The notes: a model not told the origin generated them from the sequence alone. Positions 3,401 to 29,784 are shown, numbered from the stretch's first letter. The stretch is 64,000 nucleotides of DNA from Candidatus Saccharibacteria bacterium UBA1235 (GCA_002309075.1 DBWP01000015.1:1612-65611), one strand, 5' to 3'. Translations and numbers: made by a program.

Positions 3401-3433
3401 CATTATAGCACACATTACCATTTTTGTCAAGAT
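3401..3433 (-). promoter_or_regulatory. Sigma70-type promoter TTGACA-N17-TATAAT
   Basis: Minus strand reads atcTTGACAaaaatggtaatgtgTGcTATAATg. Confidence 0.85.
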
Positions 3434-23819: not shown

Positions 23820-25520
23820 CTAAAATTCTTTCGCAATACGCTCTAATTTTCTAAAATCAGTCTTATTTGCTCGCGTTAAAGGAAGTTCATCTAAAAATTC
23901 CACTCTTCTAGGAATTTCATAACTTTTCAACGTAATTTTTCTCTTACCTAGATAAAATGGCTCCGTCGCTGTCTTCATGATTTCTCGTCTTGTGTCACGA
24001 TTTTTCCCCACGCCTTCTTTTACGACCACGAACGCACACGACGAAAATCCAAGTTTTTTATCCGGCATTTTAACTACATAGCATCGCGAAACCAAATCAC
24101 TCTTTGCGACTGCCGACCTTACGACTTCATAATAAACCTTTGCCGGCACCGTATTAATAAAGAATGTCGCGCGTCCGACCAAAGTTACAAAACCAGTCTC
24201 GCTCACCATAGCAAGATCGCCAGTTTTTACAAACTTTTTGCCTTTTACAATTTTAATTTTCTCTTCATCAAGTTCTGGACGATTAAAATATCGCGATAAA
24301 ACATGTTTTCCCGAAACATACAAAATTCCGGTTTTAGAAAAACCAACTTCCTCATCCGTTTCCGGATCAAGCACCATCACGTGCGCACCCGGCACAACCT
24401 TTCCAACCGTATCCGGACGATAAGTCGAACCAACAGCAACCGTAATTGAACCTAGACATTCTCCGACGCCATAACCATTACACATTTTTACGTCAGCGCC
24501 ATGCGCCTCAAAGAACTTCGCAGTATCTTCCGAGGCTTGTTTTTCTAATCTTTCCCCGCCCGAAATGCACATTTTTACGCTCGACAAATCCATTTTCTTC
24601 GGCAAAACTTTCGGAAGAAGATCAAACAAAAGTGGCACCGCCTGAACCACGCTAATTTCCTTCTCGAAATAATATTTCATATTTTTTTCATCAATATCAG
24701 GCGTCAGAATCACACTCGAACCGCCAATAATTGGCGTCATTACACTCGTCCAAAAACCATATGGACAATCGAACTTCACAAACGAAAACCACGTACGAAC
24801 AACCTTATCCCACATCTTAATTCCGCTCGCCGCTTTCGAAAATAACGCCGCCGCAATCAAATTCGTATTCGTAAATACCATTGGTTTTGGACCACTCGTT
24901 GAGCCAGAAGTAAAACTAACTAGCGCTTCATTTTTTCCGCCAAAAATTCCCAGCGGCACTCGGCCCTTAAACTTTTCCGCTACTTTCCGAATTGTCTGCT
25001 TCCCTACAAAAATATGATCGAGCGCCGACATTTCTAAAATTTCTGTTTGTTCTGGGTCTTCATCACCCGCATCAATAATCGCCCCGTCTAAATTAATTAC
25101 GGTTTTAATATTTTTCGCCGCGCGTTTTAATTCTTTAATCTTTTTATCACTATATTTATATGTAACAACTATTTTAGAATTAAATTCTTCAATATAATGC
25201 AACAACGTTTCTCGCGGCGTTTTTTCGTCTAGAAAGGAAACTAAAGCCCCAATTTTATTTGCGGCGAGAAATATCAAAACGTTATCATACATACTCCGCC
25301 CCGTCGCAACTGTAATAATATCGCCCTTCTTAACCCCGAGGGAAAGAAGCGCCTTCGCCATCACCTTTTGATCTTTCTTTAACTCGGTCCTCGTAAAATC
25401 AAATTCTTTTTGATTTACCACTACATTTTTATTATGACGAAAACATGATAAATCATAAAGCGCCGATATTGTTAGTGGTGGTACTATCGGATCTTTTTTC
25501 TGATCTTTAATTTTTAACAT
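23820..25520 (-). CDS. Class I adenylate-forming enzyme (acyl-CoA synthetase-like)
   Basis: SFTSGSTSGPK AMP-binding loop, NGYGVGE, TGDL, GR, C-terminal LPLT..NK; substrate unknown. Confidence 0.85.
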   Translation of the reverse strand: MLKIKDQKKDPIVPPLTISALYDLSCFRHNKNVVVNQKEFDFTRTELKKDQKVMAKALLSLGVKKGDIITVATGRSMYDNVLIFLAANKIGALVSFLDEKTPRETLLHYIEEFNSKIVVTYKYSDKKIKELKRAAKNIKTVINLDGAIIDAGDEDPEQTEILEMSALDHIFVGKQTIRKVAEKFKGRVPLGIFGGKNEALVSFTSGSTSGPKPMVFTNTNLIAAALFSKAASGIKMWDKVVRTWFSFVKFDCPYGFWTSVMTPIIGGSSVILTPDIDEKNMKYYFEKEISVVQAVPLLFDLLPKVLPKKMDLSSVKMCISGGERLEKQASEDTAKFFEAHGADVKMCNGYGVGECLGSITVAVGSTYRPDTVGKVVPGAHVMVLDPETDEEVGFSKTGILYVSGKHVLSRYFNRPELDEEKIKIVKGKKFVKTGDLAMVSETGFVTLVGRATFFINTVPAKVYYEVVRSAVAKSDLVSRCYVVKMPDKKLGFSSCAFVVVKEGVGKNRDTRREIMKTATEPFYLGKRKITLKSYEIPRRVEFLDELPLTRANKTDFRKLERIAKEF

Positions 25521-25522
25521 AG

Positions 25523-26350
25523 TTATTCTCCGCAAACTACTTGGTTAGCATGTAGCCACCCTTCGACCGACCCACCGTCTAGGTATTCCCCCTTCGCTGG
25601 CGCAACCTTCATCACGCCACCCTCTTTGATATATTCATCAATCGGATCCGTGACCATATATTCTTGGTCTTTTGGCCCAAAATTATTTTCATTCACATAT
25701 TTTACAATTTTCTTCAAAAGATCCGGCGTCATGACATATTTAGAAACATTGATTAAGTTCGATGGCGCTTCTTCTGGCTTTGGTTTTTCTACTACACTAA
25801 CCAAATTACCATCTTTTTCCGAAAGCACACCATATTTTTCGACTTCATTTTTATCAATTTCGACCCCAAGAATTGCCGACTTATCGCCGCCCGAAGCTTT
25901 TACTAATACTTCCGCAGCCGATTCGCCTCCCGGATTCCAAACAAAATCATCGCCCATAAAAACCAAAACCGGTTCATCAATTCCAAACTCTTCCACCGCC
26001 ATCGCAATCGGCACCGCCGTCCCATATTTCGCCGACGGATCTTGTGCTACATAATGAACATTCACATCATCCGGCAAAGTCTTTGCTTTATCTAATTTAT
26101 CCGCTTTACCACGATCAACCAAATATCGATTCAAAGCTAAATTATCCTGATAAAACGCACGGACTTGGCACGGCTCAACGTTCGATACCACCATATAAAT
26201 ATCTTTAACGCCAGCTTTAATTAAATCTTGCACCGAATAATCAACAAGCGGTCTATTACCGACCGGAAGCATTGATTTTTCTACGACTTTTGTAATCGGG
26301 AGTCTTCTTGTGCCCCAACCTGCCACAGGAATAATTGCTTTCGTAATCAT
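25523..26350 (-). CDS. Sugar-phosphate nucleotidyltransferase (GalU-like)
   Basis: AIIPVAGWGTRRLPITK...K.MLPV, YGTA, VEKP, YLDGG. Confidence 0.85.
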   Translation of the reverse strand: MITKAIIPVAGWGTRRLPITKVVEKSMLPVGNRPLVDYSVQDLIKAGVKDIYMVVSNVEPCQVRAFYQDNLALNRYLVDRGKADKLDKAKTLPDDVNVHYVAQDPSAKYGTAVPIAMAVEEFGIDEPVLVFMGDDFVWNPGGESAAEVLVKASGGDKSAILGVEIDKNEVEKYGVLSEKDGNLVSVVEKPKPEEAPSNLINVSKYVMTPDLLKKIVKYVNENNFGPKDQEYMVTDPIDEYIKEGGVMKVAPAKGEYLDGGSVEGWLHANQVVCGE

Positions 26351-26377
26351 GATTTTCCTCACTTAATGACAAGTATA

Positions 26378-28012
26378 TTATATCACAGAAATCAAAGGCG
26401 CATCCCATTTATCTGGAAACTCCAGATCAAGAAACGTCGCAATCGTCGCAGCAACATTAGAAAGCCCCGGCTCTTTCACTTTATTTAATCGATATTTCTC
26501 CCGATTCTTCGTATTATCATAAATAATAAACGGTACTTTATTCGTGGTGTGCGAAGTTTTTGGTTTTCCTTCTCCGTCTAAAAGTTCCTCCGCATTTCCA
26601 TGATCTGCCACGATAAGAAGCACCCCGTGAAGCTCATCCACTTTCTCAGCTAACCGCTTCAAAGATAAATCAATCGCCTCCATCGCCATAATCGTCGCGT
26701 CCATATCCGCTGTATGTCCAACCATGTCGCCATTCGGATAATTTATTCTCACGAATCGAAAATCTTCCATTTTCTCAATCGCCGCATCCGTAATCTCCGC
26801 GCTCTTCATCCACGGCCGCGTCTCGAACGGCTCCGTATAAGAATCAATTTTAACAAATTCCTCCCCCTCCGCCTGACGATAAGTATTCCCATTAAAGTAA
26901 TATGTTATATGTCCAAATTTCACCGTCTCCGAAATCGCGAGCTGCGAAACCCCATTTTCCTCCAAAAGCTTATTTAAGGTATCGTCAAACGCCGCCGGCT
27001 CCACCAAGCGATGCTCCGGCACAAACGTACTCGAATTATATTCTGTCATTCCCACAAAATATACCTGGTCTGGCGTATATGAACCGCGATTAAAATATGG
27101 AAAGTCCCAATAGGTAAAAGCCTGCGCAATTTCAATCGCCCGATCCGCCCGAAAATCAAAGTAAATAAAACTATCGCCTTTTTTCACCGTCCCAACCGGC
27201 CGCTCATCCTCATCCACAATCACAAACGGCGGTAAATATTGATCCTGCATATTCGGGTCAATTCTTCTCAACATATTAATCGCCTCGGTCGCAGATTTAA
27301 AATAATAATCCGCCTCGCCATTCACCATCGCGTCCCAGCCTCTAGCAACCATCTGCCAATCATTCTCATATCGGTCCGCCACATAGACCATCCGTCCACC
27401 ACCATCTGCCAAACAAATATCCGCATCCTCAAATTTCTTAATAAACTCCTCAAATCTTTCTATATAAACCAGCGCCGACTGCGGAGGTACATCACGACCA
27501 TCAAAAACCGGATGCACTCTCATTTTTCGCACCCCTTCTTTATATGCCATCGTAATCATTCTTTCCAGATGACTAATATCACTATGCACCCCACCATCAG
27601 AGAAAATACCCGCAAAATGTAGCGTTGCAGGCCCTATCCCCTCATTATACCACACATCATCATTTTTGTCAAGATTATCCCCATCCAGCACCTTTTCAAT
27701 CGCCTCTCGCCAAGCTTTCGTCTCAAAAATTCTACCTTCCTTAAACTCCTCATCAATCCTTCTAATTCCATGTAGCATCACCTGCCCCGCACCCATCGTA
27801 TTATGGCCAACTTCTGAATTCCCCATCTGATCCGGAACTAAACCAACATATTCACCCGATGCATTAAGCGCCACGTGCGGATATTCCCGCACTGCTTTAC
27901 CCAAAAAACCCGTTCGGGCCCTTGAGACCGCATTCCCTAAACCATCCGGCGCCAATCCCACTCCATCAAGAACAGCCAAAACTACCGGCCCATCATACGA
28001 TATTTTGTCCAT
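26378..28012 (-). CDS. gpmI: 2,3-bisphosphoglycerate-independent phosphoglycerate mutase
   Basis: LAVLDG, MGNSEVGH, SDGGVHS, FDGRD, FRADRA, ETVKFGH, NGDMVGH, ADHGN. Confidence 0.97.
   Translation of the reverse strand: MDKISYDGPVVLAVLDGVGLAPDGLGNAVSRARTGFLGKAVREYPHVALNASGEYVGLVPDQMGNSEVGHNTMGAGQVMLHGIRRIDEEFKEGRIFETKAWREAIEKVLDGDNLDKNDDVWYNEGIGPATLHFAGIFSDGGVHSDISHLERMITMAYKEGVRKMRVHPVFDGRDVPPQSALVYIERFEEFIKKFEDADICLADGGGRMVYVADRYENDWQMVARGWDAMVNGEADYYFKSATEAINMLRRIDPNMQDQYLPPFVIVDEDERPVGTVKKGDSFIYFDFRADRAIEIAQAFTYWDFPYFNRGSYTPDQVYFVGMTEYNSSTFVPEHRLVEPAAFDDTLNKLLEENGVSQLAISETVKFGHITYYFNGNTYRQAEGEEFVKIDSYTEPFETRPWMKSAEITDAAIEKMEDFRFVRINYPNGDMVGHTADMDATIMAMEAIDLSLKRLAEKVDELHGVLLIVADHGNAEELLDGEGKPKTSHTTNKVPFIIYDNTKNREKYRLNKVKEPGLSNVAATIATFLDLEFPDKWDAPLISVI
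27643..27675 (-). promoter_or_regulatory. Perfect consensus promoter embedded in frame in gpmI
   Basis: atcTTGACAaaaatgatgatgtgTGgTATAATg; 30/33 identical to 3401-3433. Confidence 0.7.
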
Positions 28013-28030
28013 ACTTTTATTATAGCATAA

Positions 28031-28057
28031 AAAAATAGCCCTCATCGGGCTATTTTT
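28031..28057 (-). terminator. Terminator after the arc operon
   Basis: aaaaatagccc...gggctattttt. Confidence 0.8.
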
Positions 28058-28065
28058 CTACTGTG

Positions 28066-29784
28066 CTATATTGAGAATAGACAGAGTACTACGATATTTA
28101 CTACCGCAATACATGCGACTACGCGGATTCCCCACTTAAACCAAGTCGAGTAGTCCACTTTCGCAAGCGCAAGGCCGCCCATAATCGCACCACAAGTTGG
28201 TGTGATTAAGTTGACTAAACCGTTTGCTGCTACGATCGTCATCGCCGCCACGTTTGTGCTGTAGCCAAGGTTGGCTGCCACCGGCGCAATAATCGGAGTT
28301 GAAAGCGTTGCGAGTCCAGAAGAAGACGGAACAAGCACCGACAAAACCGTATGTAGCAAATAGTTCAAAGGTACGAAAGCCATTTCTGGCAAAGTCGCTA
28401 GGAATGCTGACGCATTATAGATAATATAGTTATCAAGCGCCGTTTCCGACATCAAGACTGATGCGCCACGCGCAACTGCAATGACTAAAATGACACCAAT
28501 CATATCGTCTGCACCATCAATAAATGCGTCTACGAAACCGTGTTCACCTTGACGGTTGATGATAGCGACTAAAATCGCGCAAAGTAAGAACCAAAGCGAT
28601 GCTTCGTAGAACCACCAACTACCGAGCGGTGCGCCAGTTAGCCAGCCGGTCCATGAATCGAAGAACGTAATTCCGAATTCACCCCATGGCACGAAGCCGA
28701 CAATCATTACGAGGAAGGTGATCGCAAAGACAATAAGCGTTGCGATTTGTCGACCAGTTAATTTATCGACCTCATTTTGAGCTTTTAAGAATTTACCATA
28801 GGCCTTCTCAGCTGCAGCCTGTTCGCGCAAAGACAAGAATGTCGAACCTTTATCGCGCTGAACTTTCTTCGCATATTTAATAACGAAGAATGCCGAAATT
28901 GCAAGTGTCGTCAACCAAAGAACTGTCGCGATTAAAATAATCGTACCTTGATTATATTCGATACCCGCATCTTTCATAGCTGAAAGTGCCACGCCAGTCG
29001 CAAATGGGTTGATAGTAGAACCAAGCACGCCAGAACCCGCACCAAGCAAGATGGTCGCAACACCAACGAGCGGATCAAGTCCGGCCGCAAACATTGTCGC
29101 CGCAATTAATACATAGAAACCTACGCTCTCTTCGAGGAACCCATAAGTGGTACCCAGAATCGAGAAAATAAACATGAGAAGAAGTATCAAAAGATATTCT
29201 TTACCATGTAATTTTTGTACTAAAATTTTAATTCCAGTTTCAAGAGCTTTAGTTTTAGCTACTACCGCAAGCAAACCACCAAGCATCATGATGAAAATAC
29301 ATACATCAATCGCATCAGCAAAGCCTAGAATCGGTGACATCAAAATTTGATAAAATGCCGCGCCTTCTACGCCAGTACCGTCCACAATCGCACAACCATC
29401 TTCACCATAAACTTCTTCACAAGCAGCTTTCGATTCATAAACTTCTGCCTGTTCAGTTTCGGTTGCAGTGACAACAGCCTCTGATTCACCATCTGAGACT
29501 TCAACTGTAGTTTCATTTGTAACTAACGGAGTTGACTCCACGACCGCTTCTTTTACTGGAGCTTCGCTATTTAGTCCTTCCGGAGCACTTTCGGATTCAC
29601 CTTCCCATTCGCCCGGCCCTACTTGCACACTAGACGTCTCGTCTTCTTCTACTTTTGGCGCATACTGTGCTTTTGGTAGTAAATGAGAAGAGATGCCAAG
29701 TATCATGATTAGAACCATGATAATCGAGTATGCCGAAAGCATTGCTCGACTGCGTTTCTTACTACGATTCTTCTTTCTAAACAT
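28066..29784 (-). CDS. arcD: YfcC-family arginine/ornithine antiporter
   Basis: Multiple TM helices; GTTYG..EE, STINPF, PSSSG, NL.TPT motifs; sits in the arc cluster. Confidence 0.8.
   Translation of the reverse strand: MFRKKNRSKKRSRAMLSAYSIIMVLIMILGISSHLLPKAQYAPKVEEDETSSVQVGPGEWEGESESAPEGLNSEAPVKEAVVESTPLVTNETTVEVSDGESEAVVTATETEQAEVYESKAACEEVYGEDGCAIVDGTGVEGAAFYQILMSPILGFADAIDVCIFIMMLGGLLAVVAKTKALETGIKILVQKLHGKEYLLILLLMFIFSILGTTYGFLEESVGFYVLIAATMFAAGLDPLVGVATILLGAGSGVLGSTINPFATGVALSAMKDAGIEYNQGTIILIATVLWLTTLAISAFFVIKYAKKVQRDKGSTFLSLREQAAAEKAYGKFLKAQNEVDKLTGRQIATLIVFAITFLVMIVGFVPWGEFGITFFDSWTGWLTGAPLGSWWFYEASLWFLLCAILVAIINRQGEHGFVDAFIDGADDMIGVILVIAVARGASVLMSETALDNYIIYNASAFLATLPEMAFVPLNYLLHTVLSVLVPSSSGLATLSTPIIAPVAANLGYSTNVAAMTIVAANGLVNLITPTCGAIMGGLALAKVDYSTWFKWGIRVVACIAVVNIVVLCLFSI

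Follow-up and report, generated by a model that had tools for sequence, protein, structure and literature searches.

A predicted sigma-70-type promoter lies in frame within a GpmI loop and is conserved at the DNA level in Candidatus Nanosyncoccus

A 64,000-nucleotide (nt) stretch of the genome of Candidatus Saccharibacteria bacterium UBA1235 (GCA_002309075.1, DBWP01000015.1:1612-65611), which we call the window and whose coordinates are used throughout unless a contig is named, contains gpmI, the gene for a cofactor-independent phosphoglycerate mutase (iPGM). Inside the coding sequence of gpmI lies a promoter-like element, named P2 here to distinguish it from P1, the gene's own upstream promoter. 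The genome, 610 kb in 18 contigs with 41% GC, is from Candidatus Nanosyncoccus, a genus of Saccharibacteria found in ruminant guts. P2 is strongly supported as a genuine sigma-70-type promoter of presumed activity, with a full -35 hexamer, a 17-nt spacer, an extended -10 TGn and a -10 hexamer. We consider it likely that P2 is a selected and active promoter, housed in a dispensable loop of GpmI, which launches a hairpin-capped sense transcript and has its conserved target within gpmI itself.

The initial annotation had reported a perfect TTGACA-N17-TG.TATAAT sequence in frame within gpmI, and the 33 nt at 27675-27643 of the minus strand hold exactly this (ATCTTGACAAAAATGATGATGTGTGGTATAATG, i.e. 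ATC TTGACA AAAATGATGATGTGTGG TATAAT G). The core (27672-27644, minus strand) matches the consensus at 12/12 hexamer positions, carries TGn upstream of the -10, and is read by the iPGM gene as CTT GAC AAA AAT GAT GAT GTG TGG TAT AAT (LDKNDDVWYN), directly before TLHFAGIFSDGGVHS. It lies 375 nt from the 5' end of gpmI, 1.27 kb from its stop codon and 1.28 kb upstream of galU, and is the only 12/12 promoter within 16 kb. The extended pattern TTGACA-N14-TGnTATAAT was found twice in the window versus 0.00 expected from 100 dinucleotide shuffles, and 19 times in the 610 kb of the genome versus about 0.02 expected, as estimated from base composition. A matrix derived from the other 23 of the genome's 24 TTGACA-17-TATAAT sites gave P2 a score of 45.1, rank 8 among 1.22 million positions, and the agreement with the genome consensus extends beyond the hexamers to the A-tract, the GTGTG and the A at +7. 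The segment that carries P2 had been described as an 11-codon insertion; it is an insertion relative to other iPGMs, but ortholog alignment sizes it at about 17-19 codons (~27685-27629) relative to promoter-less orthologs. Most of the genus, like the solved iPGMs, lacks this loop insert or has a shorter version of it; its location in the GpmI fold is taken from sequence alignment to 3NVL. The parts of the site, together with the intergenic promoter used for comparison, are as follows.

27667..27672, minus strand: P2 -35 hexamer TTGACA, codons cTT GAC Aaa (L-D-K); same hexamer on the same codons in 55 species
27650..27666, minus strand: P2 17-nt spacer AAAATGATGATGTGTGG, containing the extended -10 TGn at 27652-27650
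27644..27649, minus strand: P2 -10 hexamer TATAAT, codons TAT AAT (Y-N)
27637, minus strand: predicted transcription start, the A of an ATA codon, 7 nt past the -10, placed according to the genome's promoter spacing
27609..27631, minus strand: predicted 5' hairpin of the P2 transcript, CCUGCAA (27631-27625), 9-nt loop and UUGCGGG (27615-27609), the 3' arm being the F-A-G codons
27599..27608, minus strand: U-rich tract UAUUUUCUCU past the hairpin, codons G-I-F-S, which gives a terminator-like look
27629..27685, minus strand: lineage-specific GpmI loop insert DGDNLDKNDDVWYNEGIGP, housing P2 and the 5' arm of the hairpin
3402..3430, minus strand: comparison intergenic promoter TTGACAAAAATGGTAATGTGTGCTATAAT, 12 nt ahead of a start codon

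P2 belongs to a minor class of promoters in this genome. The standard gene is leaderless and has an extended -10 without a -35, since TGNTATAAT occurs at 300 sites versus about 49 expected from composition, 142 of them directly ahead of a long open reading frame (ORF), and the ATG lies exactly 6 nt past TGnTATAAT in 79/121 leaderless genes; no non-ATG start was found among the leaderless genes of this genome. The class with both -35 and -10 is rare (about 25-60 sites) and serves, according to protein calls made by eye, fusA, rpoB, rpsF, rplC, rpsB, rpsA, clpP and genes for secreted proteins. Its 24 TTGACA-17-TATAAT sites share the consensus TTGACAAAAAT......GTGTGcTATAAT-N6-ATA, the ATA of leadered strong promoters falling at the predicted start position, and in the full class the leadered transcripts have a hairpin at the 5' end (mean -5.5 kcal/mol, z -1.4), which the leaderless ones lack. 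In several leadered strong promoters (e.g. the one before an EF-G-like gene, C2:51792-51820) the immediate hairpin is followed by a U-run, giving a terminator-like appearance. Intragenic copies of TGNTATAAT (26 sense and 14 antisense, versus about 49 expected genome-wide) stand at about chance level, so the few full-consensus sites within genes are special cases rather than signs of pervasive initiation; just 3-4 such sites lie deep in genes in the whole genome, of which at least two show conservation between species. No study mapping transcription start sites in Saccharibacteria was found in the literature searched, and the patterns described here provide a defined grammar for these bacteria: TGnTATAAT-N6-ATG where the gene is leaderless, and TTGACA-17-TGnTATAAT-N6-AUA followed by a hairpin where it has a leader.

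A coding-anchored pattern detected gpmI in 270/369 species genomes, and 91 genomes fitted its long-gap version. The comparison was made on a sample of 95 loci, comprising 80 loci (79 long-insert matches) and 15 short-loop loci, and P2 was called present at a promoter score >20. P2 was found at the same codons in 55/95 gpmI loci, representing at least 55 species; its -10 ends 22 nt before the LHF codons, or 25-28 nt before them in four species that have one or two additional codons. Throughout the 55 P2 species the codon before D is always NTT, though the residue may be L, I, V or F; D is encoded by GAC in 54/55 and followed by a codon that begins with AA, for K or N; Y is preceded by W, C or L (TGG, TGC, TGT or TTG), so that TGn or the -10 context is kept; and Y is TAT and N is AAT in 55/55. 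Other invariant D, Y, N, H and F residues of the same proteins use both of their synonymous codons (0.9-1.0 bit). The spacer measures 17 nt in 55/55 species and varies in sequence. As codons, boxes and spacer length are fixed while residues and spacer sequence vary, these patterns indicate that purifying selection is on the P2 DNA rather than on the peptide. Orthologs with the same peptide minus the promoter, which the initial annotation had named among its refuting observations, were not found among the loci compared. Loss of a box goes with drift of the entire segment (WHDE, WHEI, WENR, WAEV, WSGG) or with its deletion: G208 shares 93.7% identity over 7.3 kb with its sister G186, yet shows 10 differences within the 33-nt promoter.

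On the gpmI tree, P2 lineages are basal in a clade of 79 rows, next to a 16-row outgroup without P2, and at least 10 state changes are needed (17 by parsimony), a distribution that points to one old gain followed by many losses. The outgroup sequence G207 already reads ...ENLDKED..., with a TTGACA and no -10, and P2 was probably built through substitutions within a variable acidic loop that was already there. Under this scenario P2 would have arisen once in that loop, basally in a large clade of Ca. Nanosyncoccus, and would have been lost many times later.

From the predicted start at A 27637, the RNA would read AUAGGG-CCUGCAA-CGCUACAUU-UUGCGGG-UAUUUUCUCU, the 5' arm of its hairpin lying within the insert and the 3' arm within the conserved motif. 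The helix shifts its register by 1 nt between the 'PA' and the 'QR/QH/PR' codon versions, which makes fixed-register covariation counts partly fail; the hairpin was therefore tested by folding each sequence against synonymous nulls. The first 36 nt of 51 P2 species had a mean energy of -9.56 kcal/mol versus -5.98 kcal/mol for synonymous-codon nulls, and 96% of them beat their own null, whereas 40 P2-less species showed no excess stability (-4.78 versus -4.79 kcal/mol). The A at +7 is present in about 50/55 P2 species. Residues of the 5' arm switch (PA, QR, QH, PR, SR, TA) as the helix register moves by one base, the third base of the Phe codon co-varies with its partner in the insert (A:T 18, A:C 0, G:C 20, G:T 6; Fisher 1.6e-7), and Ala-GCT occurs only alongside a CAG partner. 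After a phylogeny-aware sign test this covariation is suggestive only.

Taken as an active promoter, P2 would have RNA polymerase start at A 27637, and the first 30 nt of the transcript would fold into a hairpin of 7-8 bp, like the leaders of the strongest leadered promoters of the genome. The transcript would then cross the distal 1.26 kb of gpmI and continue through galU and the AMP-binding (acyl-CoA synthetase-like) gene. What keeps P2 conserved would lie in gpmI, either as a 5'-truncated sense RNA or as transcription from that point per se. The sequence itself, its conservation, the constraint on its codons, the accompanying hairpin and the indifference to the orientation of the next gene are observed; we infer promoter activity, the start site near 27637 (predicted from spacing rules) and any role of the RNA from sequence.

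Several points weigh against a selected promoter acting within gpmI. Long inserts are over-represented among the 95 loci, whose frequencies therefore do not stand for the genus as a whole, and the gpmI tree has a one-gene basis, having been built from the single GpmI protein with the insert columns removed. P2 was lost independently at least 10 times, meaning that it is dispensable in many lineages, and the sign test on the hairpin gave 4:0 phylogenetically independent pairs (p = 0.125) and is underpowered. No P2-specific start codon or Shine-Dalgarno (SD) sequence was found downstream of P2, no other P2-specific synonymous constraint was found in gpmI, and no Rfam family matched 25000-28500 at E<=1, and for these reasons no use for a P2 RNA is visible. 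In other comparisons, P2 retention showed no link with the presence of P1 or, judged by eye, with the upstream arginine-deiminase (ADS) operon, and none of the 95 loci has relevant tRNA or tmRNA genes downstream of gpmI.

Two further sites among the 25 best promoters of the genome lie deep in real genes, outside the window and in the same reading frame as the P2 of gpmI. The first is a full-consensus promoter in a gene with S4 and pseudouridine-synthase domains (rlu; C2:1418-1446, minus strand, VDKNDEVCYN), which arose by substitutions in the native S4 tail and is kept in ~17/24 congeners (loci L171-L193), including five species with a convergent ftsA-like neighbour. Its hairpin shows apparent compensatory changes (CCGT/ACGG, GCCT/AGGC, TAGC/GCTA, CCAG/CTGG). 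This promoter behaves alike across the genus, convergent neighbours included, and the pattern of P2 is not unique to gpmI. The second, also of full consensus, lies in serS at the end of the coiled-coil arm (C5:9024-9052, minus strand, LDKIEEMCYN), and was present in only 3 of ~24 congeners (L141-L143), whose serS does not differ in length from that of the rest. Downstream of the serS promoter, 941 nt away, a ribosome-hibernation-factor-like gene was observed. A fourth candidate deep intragenic promoter, TTGACT-17-TGCTATAAT, was detected at C10:71085-71113 (minus strand), inside a crudely called ORF whose 5' and 3' ends lie 454 and 361 nt away, respectively. We put forward, as a speculative option with the odds clearly against it, that in these very small and largely leaderless genomes in-frame full-consensus promoters in tolerant linkers (gpmI, S4/pseudouridine-synthase and serS) could form a distinct device acting on the host gene and not on the downstream gene. 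Such a device might work through transcription-induced negative supercoiling, activating a leaderless promoter that is weak, lacks a -35 and lies some hundreds of bp upstream, or through a stable sense RNA capped by a hairpin and active in regulation; if true, a protein loop would exist chiefly to house a promoter.

Should P2 be active, other roles for its transcript carry some weight: a boost to galU is the foremost of them and has a minority chance, a short RNA or a cis effect comes slightly below it, and a truncated protein is clearly the least probable. In the first case P2 would be an ordinary operon-internal promoter boosting galU and the acyl-CoA synthetase-like gene, as the E. coli ftsZ promoters do, which we regard as possible but unlikely as the explanation of P2. 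In this genome the arrangement fits, because gpmI, galU and the AMP-binding gene are co-directional, with gaps of 15-28 nt and no terminator between them, P2 has no other 12/12 promoter beside it in 16 kb, and the outgroup arrangement is also co-directional. The 28 nt between gpmI and galU contain no terminator, so a P2 transcript would read into galU and the AMP-binding gene, and the internal transcript toward these genes proposed in the initial annotation is physically likely here. As the conserved reason for P2, however, this role does not hold. A promoter of galU itself lies at the gpmI stop codon, with P2 far upstream; the next gene is convergent in 24/54 P2 species, with no excess of losses there (30 co-directional and 24 convergent among P2 species, 15 and 9 in the P2-less ingroup; Fisher p = 0.63); the basal P2 lineages have a convergent next gene; and the co-directional and convergent groups do not differ in promoter score, hairpin energy, U-content or how often ATG stands at +7.

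Promoters located inside the coding sequence of an upstream gene are well known, for example the ftsZ promoters in ftsA and ddlB and the rpoS promoter in nlpD of E. coli. P2 resembles them in being a sense-strand sigma-70 promoter within a functional ORF, whose codons serve both protein and promoter. The E. coli examples drive a co-directional gene downstream and usually match the consensus imperfectly, whereas P2 is a 12/12 match with TGn, sits in a loop insert that is seemingly there mainly as its carrier, and is kept in 24 species without a co-directional next gene. In Ca. Nanosyncoccus, then, the strongest promoter class can sit deep in genes and be conserved with no co-directional gene to serve, a conservation that the usual model of an internal promoter for the next gene does not explain.

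A second, somewhat less probable explanation, which we consider doubtful, is that the hairpin with its U-tract is a working terminator that leaves only an RNA of ~40 nt, or that P2 acts mainly by occupancy of the DNA, as a roadblock or through supercoiling coupled to the weak leaderless P1 375 nt upstream. Such effects would account for the independence from the orientation of the next gene and for the tie between hairpin and P2, and the stem of 7-8 bp, at about -10 kcal/mol, followed by a U-tract, resembles the real terminators of the genome. By appearance the hairpin and U-tract look like a weak-to-moderate terminator. Against this, the loop has 9 nt, a consensus terminator scan missed the structure, and codons of the conserved IFSDGG (its I, F and S) dictate the U-tract, whose T content is no higher in P2 species; moreover, the loop and the 5' tail vary like neutral sites, so that no conserved small-RNA seed is visible, and the two other in-frame promoters have hairpins without U-tracts. 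Internal promoters that yield small RNAs derived from 3' untranslated regions are exemplified by MicL in cutC and DapZ in dapB. Like them, P2 is a conserved promoter in a coding sequence whose product would be something other than the host protein; it differs in lying 1.27 kb from the stop, whereas MicL and DapZ start near the stop codon, and in that its 5' hairpin was the sole conserved element found, where they have a conserved seed and a terminator.

It is improbable that P2 produces a leaderless mRNA for an N-terminally truncated GpmI starting at the +7 codon. TGnTATAAT-N6-ATG is the standard gene start in this genome, and the geometry of P2 puts its +7 codon in frame, with ATG as that codon in 10-11 P2 species; here and in about 34/55 species, however, it is ATA, whereas the leaderless genes of this genome all start with ATG, and the lack of a P2-specific SD or start downstream tells against this product as well. 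The protein would also be without about 130 N-terminal residues, the part which in characterised iPGMs (PDB 1EJJ) carries the catalytic serine and a metal ligand. In mycobacteria, leaderless internal starts give truncated isoforms; P2 shares with these the fixed distance between promoter and in-frame codon, that codon being ATG in 10-11 species, and differs from them in that the codon is ATA in most species, including this one, and thus no start codon.

The origin of P2 as a recent duplicate of the promoter at 3401, or as a mobile promoter cassette inserted in frame, is very improbable. The initial annotation had inferred a copied or mobile module from the 30/33 identity between the gpmI 33-mer and the promoter at 3433-3401 (minus strand, ATCTTGACAAAAATGGTAATGTGTGCTATAATG). 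Direct comparison bears out this identity, the segment is an insertion relative to other iPGMs, and the same motif occurs in the same frame in two other genes. Yet the 276 pairs among the 24 TTGACA-17-TATAAT sites have a mean 33-mer identity of 21.8 and top values of 30, 29, 29, 28, 28, 28 and 28, and because these values are continuous and a long consensus is common to the family, 30/33 is its upper end and no outlier. BLAST of 27600-27700 against the whole genome gave matches within query positions 23-71, that is, the promoter core plus up to ~14 nt, with no shared flanks beyond the core. A search for inverted or direct repeats (terminal inverted repeats, target site duplications) at the borders of the insert gave just chance 7-mers. 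The promoter-bearing insert is common to at least 55 species with different spacers and must long predate this genome; in addition, the rlu and serS promoters arose by substitution in native residues, without insertion, and the hairpin has a 3' arm native to gpmI. The module reading is largely refuted.

Least credible of all is that the peptide [LIV]-D-[KN]-x4-W-Y-N is selected as protein and its promoter likeness incidental: W is often kept in decayed inserts, but residues change (L/I/V/F, W/C/L, K/N) over fixed nucleotides, D, Y and N barely use their synonyms (GAC 54/55, TAT and AAT 55/55), and the peptide is deleted outright in many lineages.

Selection on the P2 DNA presents an unusually clean natural case of dual coding, in which a DNA signal freezes codon choice in at least 55 species as the amino acids turn over, and the GpmI loop appears to be retained mainly as a promoter carrier. 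In E. coli, cryptic and intragenic promoters may reach a third of the predicted promoters, as one report indicates (10.1101/2021.08.04.454459). P2 is like such pervasive or spurious promoters in its intragenic position, and unlike them in that it is conserved, not spurious, and that intragenic TGNTATAAT stands near chance level in this genome. For annotation, a caution follows: consensus promoters inside ORFs of reduced genomes can be functional.

The gene that hosts P2 and its surroundings were mapped as listed below.

26378..28012, minus strand: gpmI, cofactor-independent phosphoglycerate mutase, true coding sequence from ATG 28012 (MDKISYDG...)
28019..28027, minus strand: P1, gpmI extended -10 promoter TGCTATAAT, 6 nt before the leaderless ATG 28012
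28029..28057, minus strand: intrinsic terminator of the upstream arginine-deiminase operon, AAAAATAGCCC-gatga-GGGCTATTTTTTT, with a like structure at many orthologous loci
26377..26387, minus strand: galU extended -10 promoter TGTGATATAAT, made of the last gpmI codons and the stop codon

GpmI has 544 aa, is full length without internal stops, and matched the Pfam families Metalloenzyme and iPGM_N at 205 and 185 bits, as well as PDB iPGMs at E 1e-116 (3NVL at E 9e-116 over residues 10-543). Its start at ATG 28012 was assigned through the conserved TGnTATAAT-N6-ATG; the start at 28045 given by the longest ORF was discarded as an artefact, for it falls within the terminator of the upstream arginine-deiminase operon, which contains OTC, ADI and a DcuC-type carrier. 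P1 was found in nearly all ingroup species, with P2 present or not. The start of galU is probably ATG 26350, with the SD sequence GAGG at 26360-26357, rather than GTG 26362, and the galU promoter at the end of gpmI had the same layout in all co-directional species inspected. Among the 41 relatives sampled across the order, the iPGM gene was confined to this genus, being present in 23/24 of its members and in 0/16 genomes from other families of the order, which suggests a lineage-specific gain or retention. The best solved homologs of GpmI were the trypanosomatid iPGMs, which are plant-like. The gpmI genes of four more distant congeners (G010, G013, G015 and G022; loci L021-L030) matched piecewise, with extra in-frame segments near query residues 279-325, another variable insertion site in GpmI.

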